This document shows positions 41,571 through 62,240 of a DNA stretch of 64,000 nucleotides, in pieces. Origin of the DNA: Tubulanus polymorphus (taxonomy: Eukaryota; Animalia; Nemertea); NCBI RefSeq assembly GCF_964204645.1, contig NC_134027.1, positions 18,500,560 to 18,564,559 on the forward strand, given 5' to 3'. Numbering within the stretch: position 1 is the first letter of the stretch; each line of letters begins with the position of its first letter. The notes under the pieces were generated by a model. That model was not told the origin of the DNA, made no database searches, and saw nothing but the letters and a program-made list of their open reading frames with translations. Made by a program: the position numbers and the translations under genes.

Positions 41571-41683
41571 TTATAACCTGAAAGTGGCCATGTTTGTTTC
41601 TGCTGTTTCGCGTAAATCCCGCTCGGAGTGGGGCCAATACGTCGAGAAATCACTGCATACTCCAGGGGCGGTTCTAGGTTGCC

Positions 41684-41946
41684 TTTAAAATTCAAATTAT
41701 TGATATCTTAGAATAAATATTTAGTTATAATATAAAATACACACGGTTACGAAAATATATTATAGTTTTAAATTACTTTTAATGTTTTGTTTTTTAATGA
41801 GCTCGACCGTTCGACCTTTGGCTTGAAAGCCCATTACCCCTATTACTGACACCAGGCGGTTTGGTCATGTTGGTAAGTTGTACCATGTTGACAGAGAAAT
41901 AGAGAGTATGCGCTAGCCATACGACTGGTCGGTGTAGGAACGTCTA
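41684..41946 (-). repeat. 263-bp inverted duplicate of 42486-42748 (host flank + TSD + first 164 bp of the Polinton TIR)
   Basis: Reverse-complement match including the junction ATTACT|GACACC; one mismatch noticed. Confidence 0.95.
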
Positions 41947-42179
41947 GACTACTTATAGCTTTACCTGAACATACCCTACTAAAATGCCTCACCTTACCAT
42001 AACCCTAACCCTTCACCTAACCCTAACCCCGCTAGACCCTAACCCTAACCCTCTGTACCCTCTTGACCCGCTCGACCTTGCCCTCTGGACCCTTAAAATG
42101 CCGTTATATTGTTTTGTATATTAGCCATGTACTATACCAAAAACTGAGAAATTCTCTATCAACATGGTACATTTTGCCA
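41871..42179. mobile_element. MITE with internal (CCCTAA)-like repeats, nested in the host repeat
   Basis: TIRs TGGTAAGTTGTACCATGTTGACAGAGAA / TTCTCTATCAACATGGTACATTTTGCCA; absent from the paralog at 20690. Confidence 0.75.
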
Positions 42180-42584
42180 TCTTAATATGCCCCAGCGCCG
42201 TAGCGCTGTCGCAAAAATGATTTCATTCAGTAGGAGTACAGGGGCGGACCCAGAGGGCAAACTTGATTGCCTTCTTAGATTTAATAGGGCATATTATTGT
42301 AATCATAAGAGAAATTGTCTGCACTTGTATCAGCGAGCCACGCAGCGGCGACGCCCAATTCCATCGGTAAACCACCACTTTGTTTTTGAAAGCATGCCAG
42401 AGGCAATCATTTTTTTCTCAGAGTTTAAAAAAAAATCATATACTTTGATAGTTGAAGGGCATTTAAAAATGTTGACTGCCTACAATAGACGTTCCTACAC
42501 CGACCAGTCGTATGGCTAGCGCATACTCTCTATTTCTCTGTCAACATGGTACAACTTACCAACATGACCAAACCGCCTGGTGTC

Positions 42585-43474
42585 AGTAATAGGGGTAATG
42601 GGCTTTCAAGCCAAAGGTCGAACGGTCGAGCTCATTAAAAAACAAAACATTAAAAGTAATTTAAAACTATAATATATTTTCATAACCGTGTGTATTTTAT
42701 ATTATAACTAAATATTTATTCTAAGATATCAATAATTTGAATTTTAAATGCATATTGTATTAAATCAATTGGTCGCTCCGCTCCGCGACCGCTCCGCTCC
42801 GCGACCAATTGATTTATTTACAATACACAAATTCATATAATCAAATATATTTTAATAATAATTATTATTCTATTATTCAACTGAAATACACACGGTTATG
42901 AAAATATATTATAGTTTTAAATTACTTTTAATATTTGTTTTTAATGAACTCGACCATTCAACCTTTAACCTGAAAGCCCATTACCCCTATTACTCTTAAA
43001 ATAATCATATAAATGAATAACATTTAAATTGACAGATTATTCAATATAAAAGTATATATTTACAACATTATTTCAATATTCATATTTGTGTGAGTTAGAT
43101 TTTTAAACATTAAAAGTGTTAGTAAAGTGTGATTGAAATAATACATGATATAAATCATTGAACTTCTAAAATCAATTTTAAAAAAAAAATTATTTAGTAT
43201 TAAAATGGAAGCAAGTAAGTACTACTGTCCAACATGTAATATCAATATAGATAAATCCCAAAAAGCAAGACACAATAAAACTAAAACACATTTAGAGAAT
43301 AAATTGAAATTAGAATATGAAGATGATATATTAGAAACTAAATTAGATGAATTAAAGAATTAAAAAGAAACATACAAATGTGATACATGTAATCAATCAT
43401 TCAGTGATAAAAGATATTATAAAGAACATTTAAAATCTAAAAGTCATATTAGAAATATGAATAATGATATTTTA
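42585..43474 (+). repeat. Left TIR (~890 bp)
   Basis: Reverse complement of 59652-60535 with a handful of substitutions and indels. Confidence 0.95.
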
Positions 43475-43559
43475 AGGAATGAAAAAGGATGACGTTAGTC
43501 GAAGAAATGGAAGAGGATTCTAAAATGTTAATCAATTTTAATAAAAATATATATTATAA

Positions 43560-44342
43560 ATGGAGGAACAATCACAAGCTATAAATATAAACAATAATGG
43601 TGTAATAAATATATGCTATAAGAAATGTAATAAGTGTGAATTGAATAAATCATTAACAGAATTTCAAAAAAATAAAACTAAAAAAGATGGCAAACAAACA
43701 TATTGCAAAAGCTGTACTACACTATACAATAACAAATTTCTTGAAAATAATCCAAATTATTCAACACAATATTATATGGATAATATTGAAAAATTCAAAG
43801 TTAGAAATAAACAATGGAGAGAAAATCACTCAGATTATATAACAGAATATATGAGAGAATGGAGGGATAATAATGGAGAATATTATAAAGCGTATCAAAA
43901 TAATTATAAGAAAGAAAGATATCAAACAGATTTTAATTACAAATTGAAAAAATGTTTAAGATCTAAAGTATCAAAATTATTCAGTAAAGAAAACCACTCA
44001 GTTACACTAGCACATTTATTGGATTGTTCAGATAAATTTTTCAAATCATGGATAATATATCAATTCGATGATAAACTGAATATAAATAATTATGGCAATT
44101 ATTTTCATATTGATCATGTGTTACCAATATCTAAATTTGACATGAATGATGAATATGATAAAAAGTTAATTTGGAATTGGAAAAACCTGAGACCTCTTGA
44201 AAAGAAGGAAAATATGATTAAACATGACAAACTAGATTTACAGTTATATTTAGAACAGTTAATAAAAGTAAAGAAATTCATTGAATTATGGAACAATAAT
44301 CCAAATAATGAACAATATGTTGAATCTTTATTGAGTGGTTAA
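43560..44342 (+). CDS. HNH endonuclease with N-terminal CxxC..CxxC zinc ribbon, 260 aa, intact
   Basis: KCNKC..EF.KN..KDG..YCKSC; HIDHVLPIS...WNWKNLRPLEKKENMIK. Confidence 0.85.
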   Translation: MEEQSQAININNNGVINICYKKCNKCELNKSLTEFQKNKTKKDGKQTYCKSCTTLYNNKFLENNPNYSTQYYMDNIEKFKVRNKQWRENHSDYITEYMREWRDNNGEYYKAYQNNYKKERYQTDFNYKLKKCLRSKVSKLFSKENHSVTLAHLLDCSDKFFKSWIIYQFDDKLNINNYGNYFHIDHVLPISKFDMNDEYDKKLIWNWKNLRPLEKKENMIKHDKLDLQLYLEQLIKVKKFIELWNNNPNNEQYVESLLSG

Positions 44343-44601
44343 AGATTAATATATCTCAAATAAAATATAATGAAAATTACATACCTTCAACTAGCCATTA
44401 TTTCTATTTTAATTTTTAATATTTTCTTTTACAATTCTTTTCAAAAGAGAATAATTTATATCACAAATAAAAAATACTAAAAAAAACAATAACTAATACT
44501 AAAATTCTTTACCTTTAACTAAGCTAGTATGAATCTAAAGAGATACTGGTATCATTTTATAATACTTATAATATTTTTCTTATTAAATTTCTCTAATATA
44601 A

Positions 44602-45204
44602 ATGTCAAAGAAATCTAATAAGAATAGTATTGATATTGAAAAAACATTAGATGATTTGGGTATAAGTGATAATAAAGATACAGTTGTAACTAATTGTGCT
44701 CAAGTTAATTGTAATATAGATTATGAATACTATTTATATTGTAAGCATCATCTAGAACTATTGATTGCCGGTGGAAAAACTAAAGAGTTTTTAAATAGAA
44801 TTATTACTTTTCAAGAATTAGATGCTATGAAACCCGATAAAGTAATAAAATATTTTAAGATTTATGAAGAGGCAAGATTGGCCCGAATAAATGATTCTAT
44901 TTCAGATGGTATTGTCAAATGTTATTCTAAGTTATGTAACCAGTTAATACCAATTGATGATGAAAATAAATTATATAGTGATTTGAAAAATGACTATTTA
45001 GTTATGACTGAATTACAAAAATGGGTTGGATATGCTTCATTTCAATTAGGATCGGTTATGACATTAATTTCTACTGGCGTCATAACATTTTCGAACATCA
45101 AACCTATGGAATATAAATCAGGTAAGAACGAAACAGATGTACTACAACCAAACAGTGAAACAGAAAATGAATCAGAACAAAAATTAACTAAAATAAATGA
45201 GTGA
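44602..45204 (+). CDS. Polinton hypothetical protein, 200 aa, hydrophobic segment near the C-terminus
   Basis: Intact ORF; TAAATG start; GYASFQLGSVMTLISTGVITF. Confidence 0.8.
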   Translation: MSKKSNKNSIDIEKTLDDLGISDNKDTVVTNCAQVNCNIDYEYYLYCKHHLELLIAGGKTKEFLNRIITFQELDAMKPDKVIKYFKIYEEARLARINDSISDGIVKCYSKLCNQLIPIDDENKLYSDLKNDYLVMTELQKWVGYASFQLGSVMTLISTGVITFSNIKPMEYKSGKNETDVLQPNSETENESEQKLTKINE

Positions 45205-45557
45205 TGGAGTTAAGAAAAAGGCTAGATCCGAGAAACAAATTAAATGGGCAAGAGAATTAGGTAAAAGATCTTCAGAATTAAAAAAAAGCTAAGAAAAAGA
45301 AATTAACTGATATAAATGAATCACCTGATATTGATTCAAATAATAATCCATCTAATTCTTCTAATGCTGGAAGTAATTATAAATTATATATTACAATTGG
45401 ATTAGTAACAGTTATTATATTATCCGGTGTAATATATAAATCAAAATTCAAATCTGATGATAAAGATGATTCCAATGACAATAAACCTATCATACCAGAA
45501 AATAAGTCAAATCATAAAGTCATTGAAACTAAATCTAAATTATTATTAATGGATTAA
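45197..45557 (+). pseudogene. Small basic membrane protein (~119 aa), +1 frameshift in an A-run at ~45280; missed by the ORF track
   Basis: MSDGVKKKARSEKQIKWARELGKRSSELKK/AKKKKLTD...YKLYITIGLVTVIILSGVIYKSK...LLLMD*; TAAATG start; fills the gap between neighbouring genes. Confidence 0.75.
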
Positions 45558-45563
45558 AAGAAG

Positions 45564-46682
45564 ATGAAAAAAGAACAATATTTAAGAGATTTATATTATA
45601 ACCCAGAAAGTGAAGTATCATATTCTAACGTTTCAGAATTATGGAATAAAATTAAATCTGATAATGAAAATGGTGCCGTACGGCACCCACACGGTGATAT
45701 AAAATATAGTGAATTGAAATCATGGTTACAAAATCAACCAACATATCAAATCCACAAGAAAATGGATAAAACTTATTTAACAAGAAAAGTTATGGTTTCA
45801 TATATTGATCAACAATGGCAAGCAGATTTAATTGACATGAAGAACTTAGAGGAATACAACAAAGGATATTTCTGGATACTGAATGTTATAGACATATTCA
45901 GTAGATACGCATGGTCAGTAGATACGCAATCAAAAATAAAACTGGTATAGAAGTAACAAATGCTTTTAAAAATATATTTGAAGAAGCTATTCCAGTTAAG
46001 ATACAATTTGATGAAGGTAAGGAATTTTATAACAAACATTTTAAAAAACTATTATCTGATAACGATGTAGATTATTTTTCAACACACTCAGATAAAAAAA
46101 GCATCTATTATAGAAAGATTTAATGAAACATTGAAAACTAGAATGTGGAAATATTTTACTGCTAATGAAACATATAAATATTTCGATGTATTAGATGATT
46201 TAGTGAAAGGTTATAATAATTCTAAACATAGTTCTATAAATATGAAACCTATACAAGCTAGAAAAGAAGATAATTCAGAAATAGTATGGAATAATTTATA
46301 TGGAGCGTTTGTTACACATGATTTCGGTGAACCTAAATTTAAAATAGGACAACACGTAAGAATATCTAAATATAGAAAAACCTTTTATAAAGGTTATACT
46401 CCAAATTTTACTGAAGAAATATTCAAGATTAAAAAGATAATATTAACTAAACCATTTGTTTATAAACTAGAAGATCTAAAAGATGAAGAAATATTAGGTT
46501 ATTTCTATGAACAAGAATTATCACTTGTACCAAATCCAGATGAAATAGAATACAAAATAGAAAAAGTATTGAAAACAAAAACTCTTAAAGGAAAAAAGTA
46601 TTCTTTGGTGAAATATAAAGGATATGATGATAAATTTAATGAATGGATTTTATCTAGTAAAATTAAAAAAATAAATGAATAA
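45564..46682 (+). pseudogene. Retroviral-like (RVE) integrase with C-terminal chromodomain; two frameshifts (~45920, ~46100)
   Basis: QQWQADLIDM, VIDIFSRYAW, IQFDEGKEF, ASIIERFN (DDE triad); YKIEKVLK..LVKYKGYDDKFNEWI. Confidence 0.95.
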
Positions 46683-47286
46683 AGATTTATTTATATTTGA
46701 ACCTCATAATATGTTAGTTACTGGAGTAACCAATTGTGGTAAAACACATTTCATATTAGATTTGTTAGAAACTATTTATAAGAATCATTTTGATAATATA
46801 ATATTATTCTGCCCCACTTATGAAATGAATAAAACATGTAATAGAGACATAGTTAAGATGAAAAAGTTTATTAAATTAGATCCTAAAACAGTAAAAGAAA
46901 ATTTAGATAATTGTATAAAAATAGCAATTGATACTTATAAAGGATCAAATACATTATTCATTGTAGATGATTGCGCAAATTTACATGATTCAAAAGTTAG
47001 AGAAAGTGAGTTATGTTATCTAGCTTTCTCTGGAAGACATTTCGGGATAACAACATGGGTTTTAAATCAAAAATATAATTCAATTGTTAAAGACTTTAGG
47101 GAGAATATAAGATTTCTAGTTTTATTGCACAATAAAGATAGAAAATCTATGCAACAATCATTGGAAGAAAATCAAATTATACCAACTGAATTACATGATG
47201 AATATATGAATAAATTAAAGAATAATAAAGGTTCAAAATTATTACTGAGACTACAATTTCCCTATGAATATAAATTTATAAAATAA
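46675..47286 (+). CDS. A32/FtsK-like genome-packaging ATPase, 203 aa, intact
   Basis: Walker A GVTNCGKT, Walker B FIVDD, SGRH motif, downstream LNQ..FREN. Confidence 0.93.
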   Translation: MNKDLFIFEPHNMLVTGVTNCGKTHFILDLLETIYKNHFDNIILFCPTYEMNKTCNRDIVKMKKFIKLDPKTVKENLDNCIKIAIDTYKGSNTLFIVDDCANLHDSKVRESELCYLAFSGRHFGITTWVLNQKYNSIVKDFRENIRFLVLLHNKDRKSMQQSLEENQIIPTELHDEYMNKLKNNKGSKLLLRLQFPYEYKFIK

Positions 47287-47310
47287 AATTTATAATTTGG
47301 AATATTATAG

Positions 47311-47678
47311 AAACTAATTTATATATCTATGTACTAGACGTACGAGTAAGAAAGTAAGATTCTTGCCAAGAAAGTAAGAATCTTGGTAAGAATTCTTACG
47401 TACGTCTAGTATATAGATATATAAATTAGTTTTATAATAATTATTCTAAATTTAAATTATGAAAATGAATAAATTATATGTTTTTTCTTAATAATAATAA
47501 AAATAGATTATATAATAACTATTTCTATACTTAGATTGATAATTTTATGTTTTTAATTTTTATGAAAACTATTATATATATATATATATATATCTATGTA
47601 CTAGACGTACGAGTAAGAAAGTAAGATTTTTTTGGATTCTTGGATTCTTGGATTCTTACTCGTACGTCTAGTATATAG
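47311..47678. terminator. Two related long hairpins between the convergent gene blocks (47311-47432, 47594-47678); putative terminators
   Basis: 34-bp and 26-bp stems, each with one G-T mismatch, sharing the core CTATGTACTAGACGTACG/CGTACGTCTAGTATATAG; function inferred from position. Confidence 0.5.
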
Positions 47679-47702
47679 TTATTTAAATTAGTTTTATAAT
47701 AA

Positions 47703-48911
47703 TTATTCTAATTTTGTTTCTAATACATTTATAAAATCATCTCTGTTTATATCTAATTCACCAAAACTCTTAGGTAGATTTATTAATTTTAATTGAGCCA
47801 TCTTAACATAATTATTAGTAGGTAAATTAGCTTTTTCTCTTAATTTTTCTAAGTATTCATCAAAATCAGCATAATCAAAATCAAAATGATGTCCAAAATT
47901 ATTTATCAGATAACTTAAATCTATTTTTCTTAAATACAATAATTTATATATTTGTTTAGGATTATCTTCTGCATAAGCTAATAATTTATCAAATAACAAC
48001 TTATAGAATATATAATATTGGTTAGTTTTAGGATTAAAATATTTGATATATTTATTTTGGTTATTTAACAATGGTATCATACTCACCATTTTATAAACAT
48101 TAATTAGATGTAACTTTGATTTATAATGAGTATTTTCATCAACAGGTTCAATTTTCTTATTACAATATTGGCACATTTTATTTCTTTCTATTTCTTCTAA
48201 TTTCTTTTCATGTTCTTCTAACTTCCTTTCATTTTCGATATGCGCTTGAGATTTTTTATGTTTAGAAAAATTACTTTTAGAAATATCTAAATCACAAATG
48301 TTACAATGTTTTTTAGAATCATCAATTTTTTCATTATCATTAGTTTCAATTGTATCAACATTATCTGTTATATTATCTATGGTATCATTTGTTTCAATTG
48401 TATTAACATTATCTATGATATTATCTATTATATTATTATCAGATATATTATTATCATTATTTTTCTTTTCTTTTTCTATATGTTTATTTGATTTCTTATG
48501 TGATGCCCAATTTCTATATGATATATATTTCTTACATACATCACAATATTTTTCATTTGTCTTTTTGGTTTTGATATCAGGTTCAATCTTATCATTATTA
48601 GATGTAGTAGGTATTACATTATTAGATGTAGAAGGTATTACATTATTAGATGTAGAAGGTATTACATTATTAGATGTAGTAGGTATTACATTATTAGATG
48701 TAGTAGGTATTACATTATTATCAATTACATTACTTAAATTATCAACAACACCACTTTTATTATTATTGATTTCTATTAGTTTAGTTTTATAAATTTTGAA
48801 AATAGGATCAAATATCAAAGCTATATTACAAGGTATTACATAATATAAACCATCATTATTTTCATGTGTATCGATGTATGGAATATGTTTATATACTTTA
48901 CCTCCTTCCAT
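47703..48911 (-). CDS. Protein with three matrin/U1-type C2H2 zinc fingers and a 5x NNVIP(T/S)TS repeat, 402 aa
   Basis: YCDVCKKY..SHKKSNKH, HCNICDLD..KHKKSQAH, MCQYCNKK..THYKSKLH; 24-bp tandem repeat at ~48595-48735. Confidence 0.85.
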   Translation of the reverse strand: MEGGKVYKHIPYIDTHENNDGLYYVIPCNIALIFDPIFKIYKTKLIEINNNKSGVVDNLSNVIDNNVIPTTSNNVIPTTSNNVIPSTSNNVIPSTSNNVIPTTSNNDKIEPDIKTKKTNEKYCDVCKKYISYRNWASHKKSNKHIEKEKKNNDNNISDNNIIDNIIDNVNTIETNDTIDNITDNVDTIETNDNEKIDDSKKHCNICDLDISKSNFSKHKKSQAHIENERKLEEHEKKLEEIERNKMCQYCNKKIEPVDENTHYKSKLHLINVYKMVSMIPLLNNQNKYIKYFNPKTNQYYIFYKLLFDKLLAYAEDNPKQIYKLLYLRKIDLSYLINNFGHHFDFDYADFDEYLEKLREKANLPTNNYVKMAQLKLINLPKSFGELDINRDDFINVLETKLE

Positions 48912-48941
48912 TTATTATATAAATTTTTATTATAGTTAAAA

Positions 48942-50189
48942 TTAATACATAACACTATTTAATTGAGAATTTACAATATATAATTGCGCGTCAGATATAA
49001 TATAAATGTGCATTTTAAAATTTTTGATTCCTTTATTCTTTGTCATGAATAATTGTATTCCATCTTTAGTGTTTTGTAATTTTTTTCCAGAACCGTGTAA
49101 TGAATTATCCTCTGTTGTTCTAAAATCTAACCATAATGCATATTTATTACCGGTATAATAATCAATTTGATTAATATTACAATTTTCAGATGATTTTACT
49201 TTTTCATTCATAAAATGTTTTCTAATTTCTGGCCATTGATCAATCATTCTCATTCCTTGACAAAATATTTTATTTGCTATTCCTTCGATAGTTATTTCTA
49301 CTTTTGTTATTTCAGGATTATAATAATTATCAACATTTATTGCGCCATTAGTATATGTTGCAATGGTAAAAAATATTAATATACCTTTAATAGATCTTCT
49401 TGGGAAGTTAATATTCTCATTAATTATTTCATCATTTGCATTAATAGTTACGGTTTTAAATTTATCAATATAATCATATAATAATGAAAATCCTTGATTG
49501 TATTTAGTTTGAATTATACTTGAAATATTTTCATCAGTTACTGTATCATATTCTAAACATATATTCGATAATTTATAACTCATATCTTTATTAACGCTAG
49601 ATATTACAATTTCATTAACAGGAGCAAATGTTATTTCGAATATAACGTCTTCTTGAATTGCGTATTTATATAAAGGTGCATTGTTATTTATCAATTCAAA
49701 GTCTAATGGAATTTTATATTTGCTTCCATATATACTTTTTATCAATTTATCTACAGCATTAGTTAATATTGCATTATGTGCTTCTGATCTTAATTCATTT
49801 TGGTTTTCTGATTGGATACCTTGAAATATCATATTATTTCTGTTTTCTTTAGTTAACCATAAATCTTTATAATGCATAAATAAATTATAATCATCTAATG
49901 AGAAAACTGTTTCTGGACCAATCTTTATTGTTAATTTTTTAATCAAATATCTTCCAACATTATCAACAACATAATTATTATTATTACCGGTTACTTTTAT
50001 ATCGGCTGATAAATAAATACTATTTGGAACATAAAAAGTATTTTGTGTTAATCGAGGAATTCTAACATATAAAGTTTCATCGGGATTAATATTAGAAGGG
50101 TTATGAGTAATTATATGATGTGATCTTTCTGCTTTGATAGCATTAGATATTCTATGATTCTTAGAAGGATTGATATAACTCCCACTCAT
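48942..50189 (-). CDS. Putative double jelly-roll major capsid protein, 415 aa, intact
   Basis: Size, beta-strand-rich pattern (LYVRIP..FYVPNSIYLSADIKV, LIKKLTIKIG, YKIPLDF, LSNICLEYD, YALWLDFRT..HGSG) and position in the structural block; fold not computed. Confidence 0.8.
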   Translation of the reverse strand: MSGSYINPSKNHRISNAIKAERSHHIITHNPSNINPDETLYVRIPRLTQNTFYVPNSIYLSADIKVTGNNNNYVVDNVGRYLIKKLTIKIGPETVFSLDDYNLFMHYKDLWLTKENRNNMIFQGIQSENQNELRSEAHNAILTNAVDKLIKSIYGSKYKIPLDFELINNNAPLYKYAIQEDVIFEITFAPVNEIVISSVNKDMSYKLSNICLEYDTVTDENISSIIQTKYNQGFSLLYDYIDKFKTVTINANDEIINENINFPRRSIKGILIFFTIATYTNGAINVDNYYNPEITKVEITIEGIANKIFCQGMRMIDQWPEIRKHFMNEKVKSSENCNINQIDYYTGNKYALWLDFRTTEDNSLHGSGKKLQNTKDGIQLFMTKNKGIKNFKMHIYIISDAQLYIVNSQLNSVMY

Positions 50190-50209
50190 TTATTTAACAA
50201 AAAAATTAA

Positions 50210-51867
50210 TTATTTATTTTTTATCATGTTTACTAACCCAAAAATAATTGCACTTACAACTGTAATTAAAAATAAAATAATATGTTCAGCAGCAAACTTA
50301 ATAATGTTTCCTGCAGATTTCAATATAAAACCAACAATTGATGCAATAAATCCTGGCAATGCACAGATTTTTTAGATAGTTCCCATAAATATTTTGCTAA
50401 TTTCTTTAAACCATCCTTAACTTTATCTTGTATAGAATTATTATCTGGGGGTTTATCTGGTTTATTTGGAGTAGGAGTAGATTTCAAAGCATTTGATATT
50501 GCTAAACCTATTGTTGTAAATAACATAGTTACAGCTGTTAGAATTGAAAGAATTGTTATTCCTTCTAACTTAAATAATAATCTTATTCTATCTTTTAGTG
50601 ATATGTCAGAATTTGTTTTTATCAACAAATCTTTAAAAACAACTTTTAATTTTTTAATATGATTAAGATCATATGATTTTAATAATGTATCTCTTTCTTT
50701 TTTCTGTAATTCTTTGTTATATTTTAAATCATCTATTTCTTTTTCTAAAGCTAACTTTCTGCTTTCATAATCAGCTTCCTCTATTACTTGAAGATTTTTA
50801 TTTAATTCTAATTGTTTTAATTCTTCATTTGCATTAGCTAATTCTTTTTCTAACATGGTTATTTTAGAAAATCTCATCTTAATATTAGCAATTTCACCAG
50901 CTGATATTTGTACCCCTTTAATTTCTCTACGTGCTTTTTCAGGAAATTGTTTTAATTCTTCATCAGTTAAATCAAGTAATCCTTTTTCTAGTAAAGATTG
51001 TATTCGATTTATTCCAGTACTATTCATCTCTTCTTCTGAATCTCTTAATCTATCAATTTGTTTTTCTAATACTAATTGTAATTGACTTGAATCATTATCA
51101 ATTGGTTGAGTGTCTCTTCTCGATGTTTCGGGTGTTGAAGATCTTAATTTATCTAATCGATCTCTATGATCTTCCATTTCTGGATCAACATCATTAGGAT
51201 TTAAATTTGGATTTTTAAATGGTGAATATTTGTTAATATCAAATTTAGGAATTGGTTCTTCTTCATCTATTCTATCGAGTGCATTCCATATAATTCTGAG
51301 AAATTCTGTGCCACCTTTTGAATGTTCAATTGAAGATCTTGCTAACATTTTAGGTTCAAAAATATTTTCTTGACCAATTCTAGATAATTGTATTGATACA
51401 GTTTTGTTATTTAATTCAACATTATAATACCATGAATCATTTTTGAATTCTAAATTATTCATGAAAAATGGGTCATCATTTATAATTTGTTTTACAATTT
51501 CTTCTGAACCAATTTCATCTATTACATCTTTTGATATTAATTCGTTAACAATTGTATATATTACTCTATTTTTCATTAATTTTAATTGAGATTTCATAAG
51601 AGGATCAGTTGTATTTACTAATCTTTTCATTAAATCCTTTCTAGATGTTGCGGTTCTAATAACTAACCTTTCGGAAGCTGTCATATATTCTTTAAATTCT
51701 TTACGCGTTTCATAATCATAATCATCATCTTCACCTAAATTAGAATTACGTCCTGGCTCATTACCATCATCAAAACTTGTTTCACTAAAATCAGGTGGTT
51801 GTTCATCAGTTATGCCAGGTTCATCTAAAGTATCCATTGGAAAATCTTCTCCACCTTTTACATCCAT
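50210..51867 (-). pseudogene. Large acidic/coiled-coil protein with C-terminal membrane segments (~552 aa); frameshift at ~50365
   Basis: ORF 50320-51867 continues in another frame as ALPGFIASIVGFILKSAGNIIKFAAEHIILFLITVVSAIIFGLVNMIKNK*; also GITILSILTAVTMLFTTIGLAI. Confidence 0.8.
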
Positions 51868-51882
51868 TTACATAACAAAAAA

Positions 51883-53208
51883 TTAAAATTTGAAATATAA
51901 TATTCGTCCGATTACAATTCCTATACAAGTTAAAGCTAATTTAGCATTTTCATGGGACTTATTATCATCATTTAGTTTAATTATATCATGTTGAATAATA
52001 TCAGTTTTTATATTTTCTGTAGTATTGTAATCTTTTATTTTAGAATCATTATTTAATTCAATATTATTAGTTTTAGTTTCAGTTGATTGAATGTGTTTTT
52101 TATTTTTTTCGCCTTCCATTAATTTTGGAGCAGTAATAATCTTTTTATTTATATCATTCAATCCAAATGAATTATTTATTGTTGCGGTTTTAATTAGATT
52201 ATTATAACCAATTATGTTTCCCATCTTTAATACTAAATCATTAAAAATAATTAATAGATTAGGGCCTATACAATAATTTAATCTAATATGTGATTTATCT
52301 AAATAATTTTGATATCTTACAATGTTCTCCGGAATCGATCTATTTTTATCATTATGAATGGAATCTTCAAATAATACTTTAAATTGTTTCTGCGCATCGA
52401 ATGAAGTGTTATCATTTCCAATTATTGGGGATCTTGTTTCAACTTGCGCACCTAAAATACATATCAGATAAGTTCTAATAGATTGATTTATTCTTTGTAT
52501 ACCAGCTTTAGTAAAACCTTCACTATTTTCTAAAATAAAATAAACCCAACCATTATTGTTTTGTTGTTGTATATTATTATAATATTTTGGTAATTCATTC
52601 CAATTTAGTGTTCTTATATCTGAATTTGTCATTATTTTTCCAAATTCTTTAGTATATAATATTCCTAATCCACCCATTGTTCCAATTTTTGCTCTAAAAT
52701 CTTTATTTGAATTAATATTAAATTCATTACATATTTTATAAAACTTAGAAAAATTAATATTATTATTCAATTCTTTAAAATATTTTGAACCTGGTAAAGG
52801 ACATTCTAATTCATGTAATATAAATTTTATTTAAAAATATGTATGAAATCTAAAAAGTGATAACATCAATGGTAAACTTGGTTTGTTTAAATGATCATTC
52901 CAACTAATTCCACAACCTGTTGTTGCACAATAAACAGCAAAATTTAATTGGTTCTGCCAATACTTCATATTAGATTTTAATAACCATTGTTTTGCCTCAT
53001 TTAAATTTTTGAAATTAATTGTATACACATGAAATATATTTTCCATCTTTACATGAAAATTATTACTTTCAGTAACATAAATATATAAATCAATTAATGA
53101 ATTTAAAACTTCATTTCTATATGTAATATCTTTATTAAAATGTATTGCTGGAATACTATATTTAATTGATTTATTATATTGGAAAGCTTTTGGAAAACTA
53201 TCTGCCAT
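51883..53208 (-). pseudogene. Polinton hypothetical protein (~441 aa) with C-terminal TM anchor; in-frame premature TAA at 52831-52833
   Basis: ORFs 52831-53208 and 51883-52770 are in the same frame and bridged by 20 open codons; ends LALTCIGIVIGRILYFKF. Confidence 0.8.
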
Positions 53209-53224
53209 TTATATAATTAAAAAA

Positions 53225-53658
53225 TTAATAATTAACTAATTCTTTTAATAATTTATCTTGTTCTTCAACTGTTATATGACCATTTAAACTTATTATATAA
53301 TCTAGTGTATTCTTCAATTTATTAATTTCTTTTATATTAGTTTTAATTTTTCTTTATTACTTTTTATATTTAATTTTGAACTTATACCAGTTAAAACACT
53401 TGAACTTAATCCTAATACACCAATTGATATAGCTAAAGGTGTTAATGGACTGAATATTGCTAGAAATGTTATTACAGAACTAATTGTAACCGAACCACTT
53501 ATAATCAAATAATATATAATTTTACTTTTTAAATATTTTTTCTTTTTTATCTTTAAGTCACTTTCAAATTCTAATATTTGTTTTTCTAAATATATTTTTA
53601 ATTTAGTTTTATTTATATCATGAGGAATAATATCAATATTATCAACTTTATCTTCCAT
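53225..53658 (-). pseudogene. Two-TM small membrane protein with coiled-coil flanks; frameshift at ~53340
   Basis: IIYYLIISGSVTISSVITFLAIFSPLTPLAISIGVLGLSSSVLTGI; continues in another frame as NIKEINKLKNTLDYIISLNGHITVEEQDKLLKELVNY*. Confidence 0.75.
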
Positions 53659-53681
53659 TTATTTAGCAAAAAAAAAAATTA

Positions 53682-54104
53682 CTAATTAGTAAATTTATAT
53701 GCTACAAATATAACAATAACTGTTCCACCTAAAATCCAAATTATTTCATATTTCTGTTGTTCTTTACTTGGGGTATAATAATCTGATAAATTAGGTTTGT
53801 ATAGATGTAATTTTTCTTTATTGGTTACCGCGTTATATAAACTCATTGCATCATCAACTGATTGAAAATCTCTATGTGAAATCTTCTGATCATATAATTC
53901 CTTGTTAATATAATCCATATAGTTTTGTCTCTTTTCTCTATATTCTTCAGCTTGTTTATTATATTTCTCTAATGCTAAGTTATGTCTTTTCTGTTCTGTT
54001 AATGATCCATTTTTATCAATATGTTTAAATAAATAACCACCACCAGTAAATGCTAAAGCGTTAACAATTGCCGATCCTATGATAGTTATAACTGCAGAAG
54101 CCAT
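53682..54104 (-). CDS. Small membrane protein, 140 aa (hydrophobic N-terminus, coiled coil, C-terminal TM)
   Basis: MASAVITIIGSAIVNALAFTGGGYLF ... IIWILGGTVIVIFVAYKF. Confidence 0.85.
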   Translation of the reverse strand: MASAVITIIGSAIVNALAFTGGGYLFKHIDKNGSLTEQKRHNLALEKYNKQAEEYREKRQNYMDYINKELYDQKISHRDFQSVDDAMSLYNAVTNKEKLHLYKPNLSDYYTPSKEQQKYEIIWILGGTVIVIFVAYKFTN

Positions 54105-54128
54105 TTATTTAGTAAAATAATTATGCAT

Positions 54129-54350
54129 TTATATGGGAGGAATATATTTTTGTTTTTCTAAATAATCAATAGTTAAATTAGATAAAGTAACTGCTAACGT
54201 TAATTTTAAAATATCATTTATATCAAATCTATCAACATTAACACTTCCCATTTTAAATACTTTTTTTAATACCATTGAATAACCAACAGTTCCAACAGAT
54301 AGTAATGCTCCATTATATAATCCAGTTATTATCCACTTATTATCACTCAT
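54129..54350 (-). CDS. Small hydrophobic protein, 73 aa
   Basis: Intact ORF; TAAATG start overlapping the upstream stop; two hydrophobic stretches. Confidence 0.8.
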   Translation of the reverse strand: MSDNKWIITGLYNGALLSVGTVGYSMVLKKVFKMGSVNVDRFDINDILKLTLAVTLSNLTIDYLEKQKYIPPI

Positions 54351-54707
54351 TTATTTATCAAAAAAATTACTATCATCAAAATATTTAGTTATCTTATTTA
54401 TGATTAATTCAACATTTATTTCATTACTAGTTTCATTTGTATATATTTCAATTATTATTTTTTTAATATCATCGATGATCAAATCTTCATCTAATTCATA
54501 AAATCTTAAAGATTCTCTAATTAAATTAGTAATCTTTTCTACATTTAAAGTTTCTTTATCTATTGTTGTTTCATACTCAAATGTTGTTTCATTAGAAAAT
54601 GTAATATTTTTGATATGTGTAATTACATCATTAATGTTAAATTTCATTTCTTTCTCATGTTTAAAATCAAACCCAAAACATATACTCGGTTCAACAGTTA
54701 TATTCAT
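54351..54707 (-). CDS. Acidic hypothetical protein, 118 aa
   Basis: Intact ORF in the gene array; TAAATG start. Confidence 0.75.
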   Translation of the reverse strand: MNITVEPSICFGFDFKHEKEMKFNINDVITHIKNITFSNETTFEYETTIDKETLNVEKITNLIRESLRFYELDEDLIIDDIKKIIIEIYTNETSNEINVELIINKITKYFDDSNFFDK

Positions 54708-54723
54708 TTATATAATGAAAAAA

Positions 54724-55481
54724 TTACTCTTTACATCTTATAACTAATTCATAAATTACAGGAAAGTTATTCAAATCAATTAAATATCCATTATGATTTC
54801 TTATTTCTGATTTAAAATTATTAAATTAAGGAATGCAAGGTTTAAAATCACATTCTGTTAAATTATAATTTATTTGAGTTCCAAATTGTTTAACATTTTT
54901 TAGCGGTAAAATATTTAGTATACTAGAACTACAAATTGTTTCTTTAGTTGCTTCGAAAGTTTTTGTAGGCTCGATTAAATTGCAATAAATATAAAAGTGT
55001 GTAAAAGGTATTATATTTGAATTACCATCTATGTTTCCTGTAACAGTATCTGGTGCAATTCCTAGCAATTTAGCTAATGGTTTTTTACCATAAATGCATG
55101 TTGACTTTCATCATACACCTTTCTTTTAATTTTATTTGTGCTATAACTTTTTATAAATCTAATTAAAAATTTATCATCTCTTCTAATTTTCAACCGTGCT
55201 ATTCGGTTAATTTCTTGAGCTAATGTTTCTAAATTATATAATCCTGGTTTTAAAATTATATGAAACCATTTATCTACATTTCCAATATGAATTAAAAAAG
55301 TATTATCTTCAATAGTTTTATCCGTTATATTAAAAAAAGAATTACATAAACTTATATTAACTAATTTTAAATCTACACAATTCTTAAATTCTCTATCTAA
55401 TTGAACTAGTAAATTATGAGATTTATAATTAGTAAGTTTTCTTGAATCAACAAATATTCTGTATTCTTTTAATTCCGCCAT
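54724..55481 (-). pseudogene. Putative minor capsid (penton, single jelly-roll) protein; frameshift near 55080-55130 and stop at 54826
   Basis: IFVDSR..NSFFNIT..LKPGLYN..LAKLLGI..FYIYCNLI..ILNILPL..IRNHNGYLIDLNNFPVIYELVI, a typical PLV/virophage penton pattern. Confidence 0.75.
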
Positions 55482-55498
55482 TTATTTTACATATTTTC

Positions 55499-55852
55499 TT
55501 ATTCGAAATCTATTTCATGGTGCCCCTTTTCATTCTTACCTTTGTATACGAAATAGAAATCACCAGAACATAATTCTTCTAGATCTTGACTTGATAATCT
55601 ATGAAATCTATCCGGTAAATATGTTCTGAATTTATATGTATTTCCTTTTAATCCTTCATATTCTAAGTGTATAACTAATTTATCTCCATATTTGTTAGTA
55701 ACTCTATCAATATTTGTAATTAGATATTTCTTATGGATTATTAATTCTTTTAACTTCTTAAATTTATAATCTACTGATTTGACATTTGAAGTATCTTTTA
55801 TTCTATCTAGAAATAATTTGTTGTTCTCACTGTGTGCTTGTTTACTCTCCAT
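55499..55852 (-). CDS. Small protein downstream of pPolB, possibly an OB-fold ssDNA-binding protein, 117 aa
   Basis: KKLKEL..KYLI..V.NKYGDKLVIHL..FRTYLPDRF beta pattern and acidic tail; function inferred. Confidence 0.55.
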   Translation of the reverse strand: MESKQAHSENNKLFLDRIKDTSNVKSVDYKFKKLKELIIHKKYLITNIDRVTNKYGDKLVIHLEYEGLKGNTYKFRTYLPDRFHRLSSQDLEELCSGDFYFVYKGKNEKGHHEIDFE

Positions 55853-55881
55853 TTTAATAACATATTTTTATTAAAATTTGA

Positions 55882-58800
55882 TTAACACGTTAGGTTTCTT
55901 TTCATTATCTCGTTCTCTTTTGTTTCTTCTCTTTTAAATTTTAAGTATTCATCTAAATTACAACCATAAGCAACTGTATGAATTCCATCATCTAAAATAT
56001 ATCTTTTATCATCAAATGGGTTTAGACTTATCTTTTCAATTTCTTCAATAAACATTTCATGATCTTCAGATCTTAAACATCTCATCTTATGTTTTCTAAC
56101 TTCTTCATTGAATATACAATTGATGTAATCTTTGAAATGAATATTCTTTTCTACTACACTTTTAGTTATTCCTTTTAACTTTTTAGCTTCATGTTCTTTA
56201 GTTTTATATGAATACATTTTAGATCTAATACCGATGAATTCAATCATTTCTTCACCACCTAATTCATCTTTGAATTTACCGGGAACTTTTTTATTATCAT
56301 TGCTAAACAATTCATGATCTTTAGGATAATTACTGAAATCAAAATGATGTTTTAATGTTTTTAAATCATCAGTTATGTTATCAGTTTTTATCTTTAATAT
56401 GTAACTGTCAGTATCAAAATATAATATTTCTATATGTTTTTCTCCAAAAAGTGGTTGTAATACATTATAATAGAATTCATACATTAGTAATTTTGATAAT
56501 TCTAAAACTGAAGCGCCAACATAGATTGGTTTATTAAATTTCATTGATGTTCTTCACATTTTAACTGCAGCTAAATTTTCATCAAATATTCTGTTACCAA
56601 TGAACTTAGGATATGTTTGTAAATGTCTAATTCTTTTACCATTACTAACTAACTCAATATCATTTCTATTTCTAATATTTTCACAAGTCTTACCATAGAA
56701 TGCATTATTCATTAACTTAAAGAAATCTTTTTCGAAATCAGTTTTAGCTTCAGTTCACTGTTTGGTGTTAAAATCTATATATTTTTCTAACCACTTAGAT
56801 TGGCTGAATGAAATATATCTATGTACTTTTTTTAGAATCATTCCTTGATTCAAATAAAACTTTAACATTCTATAATGTACTACATAATTATATTTATCTT
56901 CTTGAGTTACCATTAACTTTTCTGTATGAATATGATTTTCGGGTTTAATTCTCTTTTGGTAATTTGATAATTCTTCATGTGTTACAGTTTTATGTTCGGG
57001 GCAGTATACTAGATTTCTAGATTTAAATTTTTTATCTTCAGGATATTCTAAATCTACAACAAAGAAGTAACCAGTATCTGAATCATCTGCAATATCTAGA
57101 ATTCTTTTCTTCCAATCAAATTTATCATTATTTTCATTCTGTAAAACTTCAGTTAATTCAAATACTCCATAAGGTTGTGGTTCCATCATTGCCCAACCAT
57201 ACAAATTATTTGCATCTATATATAATAACTTATATCCAGGGTTATCATTTACATTGAAATATCTATCACCTAATACACCTGAAACTCCTCCTCTTATAGA
57301 TTTTTCAAATAATAGTAATTGATCTATATTTGTTAACAAATCCATTTTTATATCTGTAAATTTTAATCCACAATCCCATGTTAAACCTGGTGATGAATAA
57401 CAATGACAAGGATCAATGTTAAAATATTCTAGGTTTACATCTCTAAACCTTTCGAATATATCGGTTAATAATAATACATCTGATTTTAGATATGAATCTA
57501 CTAATTGTCCATGATTTTTCATTCCAAAATGATTCCAAATATTCAATGTTCTATTATATACTTCATCTTTAACATATTCATTTTTTAATTCATGATAGAA
57601 TTGTTCTTTCAATAATTCAGTTATATTGAAATCATTATGTGATTTATAAAATGAATATGGAATTGCTCCTTTATATCTCATTAATTGAAAATCATCATTA
57701 TTTGGGTAGTGTTGCTTTAATATTCTTAATTCATCATCAACTAATGATTTTGATAAGTTATCTAATGAACTATTTAAAAATCTATATGAATCTATAAATC
57801 TTAGGCAACCAAATTGGAATGATATATAATTCTCAGATGTTTTAGCTAACATTCTAAATTTATAAGTTGGTATTTTATCTTTTGATCTATTTGAATTTAA
57901 TCTTTCTATTTCGTTATTAATTTCTTCTATTTTATGACATAACTGTTTGATGAATAAATGTGCATCATATCCTGATAGATTATGAAATATAACTGGTACA
58001 AAGTTAATTTTCTTAGCTTGCAAGTTACAATTCTCATGTGCGGCGCCTCTAAACTTTCCATTCAAATGATCATGGTCTCTTACTTTTCTATCTCTAAAAT
58101 TAAATATCTTTTCACAATAATAACATTTATCTGCAAACTCAAATGCTTCTTTATCTTTTTCTGTCATTATAATTTCTATATTCTTATTTAACTTTTCATT
58201 AAATCTTATTTCATATTCAATTAATAAGTCACAAAAATGATTGATAATATTTTCATTTCTATAATGATAATATTCACTTTTAATTAGTTCTGGATAATCA
58301 GATTTAATATATAACCCGAAAGCTGCAGCTGATTGATGAATCTTTTTAATAGTATTTGTTATTGGTGGTTCTTCTGAAAAATAATTTTCATTAGAATTTA
58401 ATTTCTTTCTTTTATAATATATTTCTTTTCTATCTTGATCAGTTAATTCTTTATTTAATGATTCAAAATCTCCATACATTACAAATGGTACTTTATTTTG
58501 TAATCATATTTTTTGAATTCTAATATTTTATCCTTTTCATTTGGTAAAACTAATTTACAATAATCATGATTTTCACATAATTGTTTATGATTCAGTAATT
58601 TACTTTCATTACTAATTCTATGTAAACATTTTCTACAAAGATATATTTTATGGTGATCACTTTCTGATTTAAAAAATAAATCGATTTGTTTAATCCACAT
58701 ATAATGATTCTCATAATATAGTATATCTATTACATCGTTTGAATCATAATCTTTTGATAGATATAAAGGTTCTAATGTATAATGTTTTATATTGTTACCT

Positions 58801-59921
58801 TTTGTATTTGGTAATTTGATTAAATCAAATACATTTATCTTTATATTATTATCTCTTTCTATTTTTGGGATGTTTTTAATTATTACAGGATACTTATCTA
58901 TCTTATAATTATTTTCAAATTGTTTATAATGAGTTAATCTAAAACTATGTTGTTTATAATCTTCAACTGGGTGTAAACAACTTATTATAGCCCATAGAAA
59001 ACATTTATCATCTTCATTTTGTACATTTATTACAGCATTAGTTTTAAATGGTAGTTTAATATAACTCGATGCTTCAATATCTGGTTCTTTATAATATGAT
59101 ACATTATTTTCATCAATTGGTTTTGATTTAGTTAACTTATTATATTTTGTGTTATAAACATGTAAAGTCATAAATATTATTTCATCAAATATTAAACCAG
59201 ATCCTTCAAAATATTTCTCGTCTATTTTAGTTTTTACTTCATTATAACATTTATCTAATTTATCATCTATATGTTGTTTTGAAATAATATGTTGTGAATG
59301 AGAATTTATATTATATATTGGTTTATCTTCAGATTTTATAAACTTTACTTTAGAAGATATACTTATTTTAGGATATTCAACATCTGTAATTATTTTTATT
59401 ATTTCTTTCATATTTTCTAAATGTTTTTTATTTTCTTCTAATGTTTTTCCTTTATGAAATTTAAACTCAATAGCTGCTGGGCCAATATCACTTTTAAATG
59501 CTTCGGTTATCTCTATATCTTTTTTATTATCCAATGAATTAATATATTATCTTACATCTTCCATGTATGGTCTTTTATTGTTTAATTTATTTTCTATGCT
59601 TTTAATTGTCTTCTGTTTCTTATCATTATCTTTATCAAAATAATCTTCACCTAAAATATCATTATTCATATTTCTAATATGACTTTTAGATTTTAAATGT
59701 TCTTTATAATATCTTTTATCACTGAATGATTGATTACATGTATCACATTTGTATGTTTCTTTTTCATTCTTTAATTCATCTAATTTAGTTTCTAATATAT
59801 CATCTTCATATTCTAATTTCAATTTATTCTCTAAATGTGTTTTAGTTTTATTGTGTCTTGCTTTTTGGGATTTATCTATATTGATATTACATGTTGGACA
59901 GTAGTACTTACTTGCTTCCAG
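55882..59921 (-). pseudogene. polB: Protein-primed family B DNA polymerase (N-terminal zinc fingers, OTU-like protease region, exonuclease with EndoVII insertion, polymerase); start mutated, 3 stops, 1 frameshift
   Basis: NVQNEDDKCFLWAI..ENHY; VPFVMYGDFES; CYYC..VRDHDHLNGKFRGAAHENCNL; FHNLSGYD; LYIDANNLYGWAM; KLMNNAFYGK; YFDTDS; stops at 59547, 56755 and 56554, frameshift at ~58492. Confidence 0.97.
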
Positions 59922-60535
59922 TTTAATACTAAATTTTTTTTTAAATTGATTTTAGAAGTTCAATGATTTATATATGTATTATTTCAATCACACTTTACTA
60001 ACACTTTTAATGTTTAAAAATCTAACTCACACAAATATGAATATTGAAATAATGTTGTAAATATATACTTTTATATTGAATAATCTGTCAATTTAAATGT
60101 TATTCATTTATATGATTATTTTAAGAGTAATAGGGGTAATGGGCTTTCAGGTTAAAGGTTGAATGGTCGAGTTCATTAAAAACAAATATTAAAAGTAATT
60201 TAAAACTATAATATATTTTCATAACCGTGTGTATTTCAGTTGAATAATAGAATAATTATTATTATTAAAATATATTTGATTATATGAATTTGTGTATTGT
60301 AAATAAATCAATTGGTCGCGGAGCGGAGCGGTCGCGGAGCGGAGCGACCAATTGATTTAATACAATATGCATTTAAAATTCAAATTATTGATATCTTAGA
60401 ATAAATATTTAGTTATAATATAAAATACACACGGTTATGAAAATATATTATAGTTTTAAATTACTTTTAATGTTTTGTTTTTTAATGAGCTCGACCGTTC
60501 GACCTTTGGCTTGAAAGCCCATAACCCCTATTACT
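59652..60535 (-). repeat. Right TIR (~884 bp)
   Basis: Reverse complement of 42585-43474. Confidence 0.95.
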
Positions 60536-62240
60536 GGTGTCTCCCAATACCACCGCCTAGTGGGCTCAATTCAAGTTCAAATATACATTATTAATACTTA
60601 TTAAAATATACTTTATTGTTACTTCATTCAATGCAAATACATCAGATTTGCACAATTAAGTCGACAGTACACAAATAGAATTAAGAATCTATAAGTATTC
60701 AGAAGAAAACGTACCTTATTTTTCATTCATCAACTTTGTGTCTTTATTTTAAGCCGCCGGATATTGATTGACTAAATCTCTTTACTCTTCTCTCGTGACT
60801 TATATTGACTTATTTATTCATTGTTTATGACTTCTCTCTCTTCGGAAGAATTATATCCTTAGAGGCTTTTAATCTTGATCGCTAATGACTTTGCGAAACC
60901 ACTTGTCGCAGTTTATTTCCTTTTAGAAATATACCTCGTCAAAACATCTTTTACAGTCTTTAACATGCATTGAATATCTTGGAAGATTGACACGAAGGAC
61001 CAAGGCAGACAGGTCTTGAGTGCTGTGTCAAAGTTCACGCAAAACAACACCATATTCAATATATTTTTTTTCAAACGAATTTATCCGACACAAGTGTTTA
61101 CTCATCACTGCTCACCTAGTTTGATAAAACATTTCAACTTTGTATATCCAAACTCGTTACCTGGAAAAAAAGAACGGAAAGGAAGATATTCCGGCACCCA
61201 CCCGAACGGTTTTTATATTATTTTGAAAGAGTAATCCAAGAACTAATTTCCACCTCTACTCACCTCTACTCACCTGTTTTTATAATACCTGATGAGGGGA
61301 AATGTTCCCGATGGATTCGTTATTTTCTATTAAATAAACTTGACCCATTTGAGAATGAAATTTATTCTGTTAACGCTATTTATGGGTATTCAGGAAATAT
61401 TTTATCAAAAAAGGAATTAAACTGAAATATTCTGAGACGGAGGTATTAATTCTTTATGTACTACACGTACTTATAGTGTTTGCCAGTGGCGATTTAATTT
61501 TGACGATTTATTTTGATAAAGCTGGTGCAAACAAATGCAATATTTTGGAATGTGAGGATCCTGCTAAAGTAAGAAACGACGAAATTACAAAATATAAAAC
61601 GAAATTACGAATCGAAATTACGGAACGCAAAATGAAAATATAGCTTCAAGTTGGTGCACTGTTATTGATTTTCTTGAGAGCTTTCTTCAATGCAATCCAA
61701 TTTAACTATTTCTAAAGTATTTCTGGAATGTGTGGGGGTCGGCTAATCGCGACTTGTGGTTACGGAAAACGAGAAATCGAGTAAACGAGGTAATGAAGAG
61801 TGCTACCTGTTTTATTGCAGAAAAGTCGTACGGGCATATGGACTTACAGTATTAACCGGAAGTGGCATTTCCGTTAAACACAATTCGCTACTTTTGACTG
61901 ATCGATAAAAATGACGCAAGAATCTTCGACATGCTTTTGATTTTGCAAATCGATGCTGCAAGATGACGGATTATGTATGACAACCTTTGATACAGAATAT
62001 ATGAGCGTCTTGCATGGAATACTTGGTAGATTCCGTCCCTAACAATGTCGGACAAATATTTTATCACCAAAAGTCTTAAATAAAGAAAATTATATTTCCT
62101 ACGTAAGTCGGCCGTGTTGTTGATCCGTCGTTAAAAAGAAAAAATAAATCTGTTCGATTCTTTCTCCCTAGCGGGGCCTGTTGCGTGATCACGGCTTAGA
62201 CTTAAGACCAGTCTAAGACCAACTTAGTTCTGTAGCCAAT

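Follow-up and report, generated by a model that had tools for sequence, protein, structure and literature searches.

The window analysed here is a 64,000-nucleotide stretch of contig NC_134027.1 of Tubulanus polymorphus (positions 18,500,560 to 18,564,559), and it contains a Polinton/Maverick element in which most genes begin within the hexamer TAAATG. An earlier reading of the letters by themselves, called here the sequence-only reading, had placed this element at 43200..59925; an element is indeed present there, but it is larger, covering 42585..60535 (17,951 bp, 23% GC), and it is a decayed copy of a multi-copy family. It has the defining features of the group, namely terminal inverted repeats (TIRs) that open with 5'-AG, a 6-bp target-site duplication, and genes for a DNA polymerase B of the protein-primed type (pPolB), an rve integrase, a double jelly-roll major capsid protein (MCP) and an A32 ATPase. 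The features are given below with the context of each gene start, where sister Polintons are related elements outside the capsid clade of the window element and L001 is a relative within it.

42579..42584 (+): left target-site duplication, GGTGTC, 6 bp
42585..43474 (+): left TIR, first letters AGTA; within it a copy of the 5' end of pPolB, whose start at 43205 reads TAAAATG
43560..44342 (+): 260-aa open reading frame (ORF), HNH-endonuclease-like by eye, without a Pfam match; TAAATG start, A-run upstream
44602..45204 (+): conserved 200-aa ORF, common to sister Polintons; TAAATG start
45197..45292 (+): short truncated ORF; TAAATG start lying in the final codons of the upstream ORF
45564..46682 (+): rve integrase bearing a chromodomain, now broken up as three ORFs; start without TAAATG or TAAAATG
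46675..47286 (+): A32-like packaging ATPase (Pox_A32, E=5.5e-12); TAAATG start overlapping the integrase end, A-run upstream
47703..48911 (-): 402-aa zinc-finger/repeat ORF; TAAATG start, A-run upstream
48942..50189 (-): double jelly-roll MCP, 415 aa; T7 run and TAAATG
50320..51867 (-): structural-block ORF, conserved, of coiled-coil/membrane type; T6 run and TAAATG
51883..53208 (-): conserved structural-block gene, two ORFs in the window copy; T6 run and TAAATG at 53208
53332..53658 (-): membrane-type ORF; T11 run and TAAATG
53682..54104 (-): conserved small membrane ORF; T-run and TAAATG
54129..54350 (-): conserved 73-aa ORF; T7 run and TAAATG, the TAA doubling as the stop of the upstream gene
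54351..54707 (-): 118-aa ORF; T6 run and TAAATG
55074..55481 (-): truncated ORF that may encode a minor capsid protein (DUF5901 similarity, weak); A-run and TAAATG
55499..55852 (-): 117-aa ORF with a homologue in L001 only; TAAAATG start
55882..59921 (-): pPolB with endonuclease-VII domain, broken into several ORFs (DNA_pol_B_2, E=1.2e-9)
59652..60535 (-): right TIR; TIR length about 890 bp
60536..60541 (+): right target-site duplication, GGTGTC, 6 bp

The structure model of the MCP (pLDDT 85) matches the capsids of PBCV-1 (Paramecium bursaria chlorella virus 1), Singapore grouper iridovirus (SGIV), mavirus and Sputnik. The rve matches of the integrase are weak on the window pieces and lie above the Pfam cut-off in the relatives L001 and L002, while the two pieces of the gene at 51883..53208 belong to one protein family. 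The small membrane ORF at 53682..54104 is one that we take to be PW-like, and homologues of the HNH-like ORF at 43560 occur in three clade loci and in none of the sisters. Among 20 window ORFs compared with Pfam, no RNA polymerase or capping domain was detected. An adenain-like protease, which most group 1 members carry, was likewise not detected in these ORFs or in 31 sister ORFs, a comparison in which Pfam may miss diverged members. The gene content resembles that of the group 2 Maverick-Polintons (Polintoviricetes) in so far as the accessible published description goes: TIRs, 6-bp duplication, pPolB, rve integrase, ATPase and double jelly-roll MCP are all present, no protease was detected, and one sister has a helicase of superfamily 1 type in place of pPolB (L037:9970-13596, -).

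Gene starts in the window and across the capsid clade

Of the 16 reconstructed genes, 13 begin at TAAATG and two, pPolB and the gene at 55852, at TAAAATG, which leaves the integrase as the one gene with neither. The fourteen ATG coordinates named in the sequence-only reading are all correct, 13 of them with TAA directly before the ATG and 55852 with TAAAATG, and the same holds for its description of the pPolB start in the left TIR (43205), of the integrase start at 45564 and of four T-run contexts, which are exact. An enrichment comparison gives TAA before 13/16 gene starts against 41/740 other ATGs of the element (Fisher p=1.4e-13). The contrast persists with out-of-frame sense ATGs (18/282, p=5e-12 against gene starts) and with non-gene ATGs that come first after a stop (41/506, binomial p=3e-12). 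The control that the sequence-only reading had proposed, the internal in-frame ATGs, proved invalid, as its 0/69 arises by construction because an in-frame TAA cannot occur inside an ORF. The TAA is the stop of the upstream gene in one of the 13 window cases (54350), and the motifs at 45197 and 46675 sit within the final codons of the upstream ORF. Here two unrelated upstream ORFs share the last four residues KINE (45197-45204 and 46675-46682), because both read through the start motif of the next gene. Base composition and stop-start packing, which had been named beforehand as the causes that could undo the idea, do not explain these counts.

Relatives were collected by searching metagenomes with 53 aligned capsid proteins. 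This found 135 relatives, the best 80 loci of which were analysed, and 83 capsids were placed in a tree by a quick maximum-likelihood run of IQ-TREE. In this quick tree the window capsid groups with L001-L013 and L015 (SH-aLRT 99); L058 was joined to the clade by 57% identity alone, and the tree omits L067 and L073 as too incomplete. Directly before the start of the MCP gene, TAA stands in 13 of 14 loci of the clade and in none of 46 others (73 loci examined, 60 with a closed start). To these can be added the starts checked by homology, that is, 388 of 948 ORFs whose N-terminus aligns with a homologue less than 90% identical, among which TAA is found at 45/52 starts in the clade (37/43 without the window), at 0/4 in intermediates from three loci and at 5/332 in sisters. 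The start code is therefore a property of one whole capsid clade. It is also independent of AT content: the comparison with equally AT-rich Polintons, another check put forward in the sequence-only reading, shows TAA at 1/41 starts of sisters with 26-38% GC, which prefer AAA-ATG (21/41), and clade members with 36-44% GC have TAAATG at 9/11 ORF starts. The clade elements come from many unrelated samples and span 20-44% GC with one motif. At position -3 the clade has T (46/52 starts) where sisters have A (157/332).

The exceptions within the window vary between copies and relatives. The integrase of L001 and L002 starts at TAAATG, unlike that of the window, and for the gene at 55852 the same is true of L001 and of roughly one third of the reads from other copies. 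Accessory genes of clade relatives also begin at TAAATG, for instance the deoxynucleoside kinase gene of a clade Polinton at L001:10343-10981 (-). In other collections, a scan of genome contigs gave two sister-type loci, and viral contigs yielded no relative when scanned with the MCP, with the MCP alignment or with a piece of pPolB. One capsid protein that belongs to the TAAATG clade (cluster P0046) is filed under several Bartonella isolate assemblies and is probably carried-over arthropod DNA. Among the sisters, L051 encodes a poxvirus VLTF3-like late transcription factor (L051:5749-6387, -; Pfam E=1.3e-16), the divergent neighbour of which is one of the five sister starts with TAAATG; this is the only such gene in the 80 loci, with none in the clade or the window.

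The hexamer is accompanied by fixed positions further upstream. T at -12 occurs in 58/61 distinct clade starts, 15 of the 16 window starts also having it, against 44/117 TAAATG sites of the same loci that are not starts (p=4e-15). The corresponding values are 47/61 against 39/117 for T at -13 and 43/61 against 39/117 for A at -18. The surroundings of these positions differ between gene classes, with T-runs upstream of 23/30 structural-block starts and of 8/20 others (p=0.016, from loci that are not independent) and A-runs upstream of five of six ATPase starts. Three further observations were set aside: a head-to-head spacing of 19-30 nt was dropped since sisters are as compact, a scarcity of TTTTTNT on coding strands (5 sense, 50 antisense) was not used because the A-rich coding strands account for it, and a trans-splice acceptor was rejected by eye, the T-run being without a following AG.

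Copies, ends and surroundings of the element

Around the element lies repeat DNA that is poor in genes and holds the remnant of a reverse transcriptase and a fragment with a PAN domain, which makes an animal host likely. In a DNA run labelled with the same species, read depth is about 450-990 in most bins of the element and about 2-7 in the quiet bins of the flanks, and at the right end (60535) 719 reads depart into varied flanks. Run X1 matches the flank exactly and may derive from the same sample as the window. The family has roughly 100 or more copies in the host genome, mostly 90-99% alike. No read-end pile-up was reported at the element terminus, a result that is neutral on free linear copies. 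At 43538, next to the left TIR, 422 reads from other copies depart from the window sequence, with a loose end that also has TAAATG, which suggests an exchangeable gene slot.

Several structures overlap or adjoin the ends. A small element with 267-bp inverted ends (41680-41946 and 42486-42752) overlaps the left TIR and shares sequence with 60368-60536; its left end matches the Polinton TIR, it encloses TAACCC-type repeats near 41995-42050, and either a non-autonomous derivative or a nested rearrangement could account for it. Within the AT-rich TIR, a GC-rich tandem repeat with a short flanking palindrome at 42768-42810, mirrored near 60310-60352, is a candidate replication or packaging signal. 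Outside the element the window holds a satellite block at 37905-39402 with 43-bp and 50-bp units in inverted symmetry and a duplication near 1148/5256 with a spacing of 4.1 kb.

Parallels in known promoter systems

The late consensus of vaccinia is T-N9-TAAATG with T at -13 (PMC11423596), and in the vaccinia P11 promoter the T-run ends at -12 (PMC7117657). Late promoters tend to be T-rich upstream and intermediate promoters A-rich (PMC11980589), the vaccinia A32 gene being of the intermediate class. The initiator is recognised by the viral polymerase itself (PMC12917281), and slippage of the polymerase at the initiator adds poly(A) leaders (PMC5294985), as happens at TAAAN both in vaccinia and in the linear elements of yeast (PMC6211774).

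The clade motif shares with the late promoters of vaccinia and other orthopoxviruses a TAAATG over the start codon, an upstream T within a T-rich stretch and a spacer of 6-8 nt, and it shares with vaccinia the division into T-rich and A-rich upstream classes. Judged from the letters, its spacing appears close to that of poxvirus late promoters, which are the nearest match, with one base of difference at the strongest position. The sequence-only reading is supported in part: the motif is real, it holds throughout the clade whatever the AT content, and its two parts are arranged near the vaccinia late consensus, with the strongest T in a different register. Other features are unlike vaccinia: the A-run of the clade (about -18 to -13) lies nearer to the initiator than in the intermediate consensus TAAAAA-N14-TAAA, and the code sits on an integrating 18-kb element without a detectable RNA polymerase of its own.

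Poxviruses are not the only large viruses with starts of this type. A motif scan of viral contigs returned 57 loci, mostly single chance or phage matches together with non-pox nucleocytoviruses, from a collection whose poxvirus content was unchecked, so that the scan says nothing on poxviruses. Through it a nucleocytovirus lineage related to iridoviruses was reached (16 loci), the capsid of which is closest to that of Singapore grouper iridovirus (E=2e-115). This lineage has TAAATG at 89/189 ORF starts in 15 partly overlapping loci, a finding that weighs against an exclusive link to poxviruses and leaves room for helpers from outside Poxviridae. The lineage is a poorer match than poxviruses, since T at -12 is not fixed (29/62 starts, 78/197 non-starts). 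The loci concerned (L138 and L140-L153, IMG/VR) are uncultured, carry an A-rich stretch around -23 to -17 and include L143, in which 17/23 ORFs start at TAAATG. The motif type is common to two nucleocytovirus groups, and neither is linked to the window host as a helper.

The closest parallels in lifestyle are mavirus with its helper Cafeteria roenbergensis virus (CroV) and the virophage PgVV (Gezel-14T) of Phaeocystis globosa virus (PgV), which are small integrating double-stranded DNA elements with a jelly-roll capsid and an A32 ATPase, and whose genes carry a common promoter motif of nucleocytovirus type. Mavirus also has an rve integrase and pPolB. Promoter sharing with the helper is established for mavirus (10.1101/068312) and for PgVV (10.1101/2022.07.28.501842). 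Both differ from the window element in their protist hosts, their helpers of Mimiviridae type, their motifs (TCTA and AAAATTGA) and an experimentally shown dependence. The host of the window element is likely an animal, and no helper was observed.

The pGKL cytoplasmic linear elements of yeast have no capsid. They resemble the clade in a TAAAN initiator, at which slippage gives poly(A) leaders, and differ in having genes for an RNA polymerase and a capping enzyme of their own (PMC6211774). Among animal systems, polinton-like viruses (PLVs) have been proposed as hyperparasites of entomopoxviruses on the basis of their presence in occlusion bodies (Barth et al. 2024, PMC11296320), in a paper whose main text and supplement, as far as accessible, do not contain the word "promoter". 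At least two of these PLVs have no detectable integrase, unlike the window element.

Competing explanations and biological meaning

We consider it probable, by analogy with mavirus, that the two-part motif (TAAATG with A at -18 and T at -13/-12) is a post-replicative promoter for the polymerase of a co-infecting nucleocytovirus and is not read by host Pol II. Transcription would start in the AAA, where slippage of the polymerase, as in vaccinia and the yeast virus-like elements, may add an untemplated poly(A) leader. T at -3 is a poor context for an animal start codon unless a leader is added, and the poly(A) leader would hide it. Integrated copies would remain silent, as in mavirus, until a helper virus supplies the polymerase or late factors. 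The sequence-only reading had named a pox-like virus as the source of the polymerase, and part of this is upheld, as the element has no detectable RNA polymerase of its own and mavirus and PgVV offer a precedent. The pox identity is not established, because in the iridovirus-related lineage, too, roughly half of the genes begin at TAAATG, and a specifically pox-like helper is at present a tentative and somewhat unlikely proposition; that the element protects its host, as was also suggested, is less likely again.

Several points weigh against a helper-read promoter or its poxvirus link. No helper virus has been observed, and the high copy number is easier to explain if integration needs no rare co-infection. 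The strongest T of the clade is at -12, unlike the -13 of the vaccinia late consensus, and TAA is absent at 7/52 clade starts, the window integrase among them. The motif is gained once on the tree, so that the clade counts amount to one evolutionary event, and several clade loci are near-duplicates. The counts of the sister set are diluted by conserved antisense shadow ORFs, from which the comparison restricted to MCP starts is free. Sister Polintons with the same gene set and without the motif are packed just as closely (median tandem gap 11 nt), so that compactness does not speak for a promoter of this type.

Among the alternatives to a viral promoter, a short-leader signal read by the host is unlikely, though the least so. 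Pol II, perhaps with a zinc-finger activator of the element, would start beside the ATG, for which the mammalian TISU element and protist initiators are models, and the element would be autonomous and nuclear. Autonomous transposition in the germline would accord with the high copy number and the clean target duplication. Zinc-finger ORFs are present on the element, one type of them restricted to the clade, and the lack of an observed helper also speaks for this reading. The shift at -3, however, is towards a poor animal context in the clade when the sisters keep A, the motif is one and the same across unrelated samples and a wide range of GC, and no Pol II core promoter of TAAATG/T -12 layout is known to us. 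Quite improbable is a role of the TAA in translation from read-through or polycistronic RNA, by termination-reinitiation or by a block of upstream extension. The genes are densely packed and the TAA is always in frame with the ATG, but it is the stop of the upstream gene in only 2/45 tandem cases, 17 TAAATG starts lie in head-to-head pairs without a co-oriented upstream gene, and T at -12 is left unexplained. Stops adjacent to starts are TAA in 45/46 cases against 47/64 among gene stops (p=1e-5), a bias that makes a generic need for an in-frame stop unlikely, as TAG and TGA would serve too.

The motif could also be a relic of an ancestor that relied on a nucleocytovirus polymerase, with present copies spreading without its use as a promoter. 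Such a history would suit the decayed window copy and its integrase start without the motif, but we think it slightly less probable even than a translational device. The motif has been kept across capsids that are 50-76% identical and after shuffling of gene order, and it also marks accessory genes that occur in a single locus or a few (deoxynucleoside kinase, HNH-like), which argues for continuing selection. The explanation with the smallest chance of all is that TAAATG reflects the polyadenylation signal AATAAA of the upstream gene or is an AT-rich by-product. AATAAA overlaps the motif in 27/62 clade starts and the element has 23% GC; yet 35/62 starts are without AATAAA, A and T are about equally common at position -5, and head-to-head genes carry the motif. 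As AT-rich sisters nearly always do without TAA and GC-richer clade members keep it, this explanation is largely refuted.

Animal Polintons can be regarded as autonomous nuclear viruses, as plain transposons or as helper-dependent virophages, and according to the accessible text of the 2026 PLV framework no virions of them have been seen so far. Targeted literature searches, which did not cover subscription journals, found no report of the TAAATG motif in Polintons, and the word "promoter" is absent from the main texts, as far as accessible, of the coral polintovirus paper (PMC11131425), the 2026 PLV framework, a survey of endogenous double-stranded DNA viruses and the egovirus preprint. The promoter-like start code is real, clade-wide and apparently undescribed, and helper dependence after the known virophage pattern is likely by analogy. 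A more far-reaching account is doubtful, and a little more so than a pox-like helper: the clade would have switched genome-wide and in one step to the late code of a cytoplasmic pox-like or irido-like virus and would live as a virophage. Its germline copies, in the hundreds, would serve as an inducible defence against that virus, the first such system in animals, and its promoter would point to an undiscovered large DNA virus of the host.

A clade-specific code that can be scored from sequence alone separates a likely helper-dependent clade from Kozak-type sisters with the same core genes. It may account for the silent appearance of such elements, and it provides a search image for the helper virus by which the question of Polinton lifestyle becomes testable.

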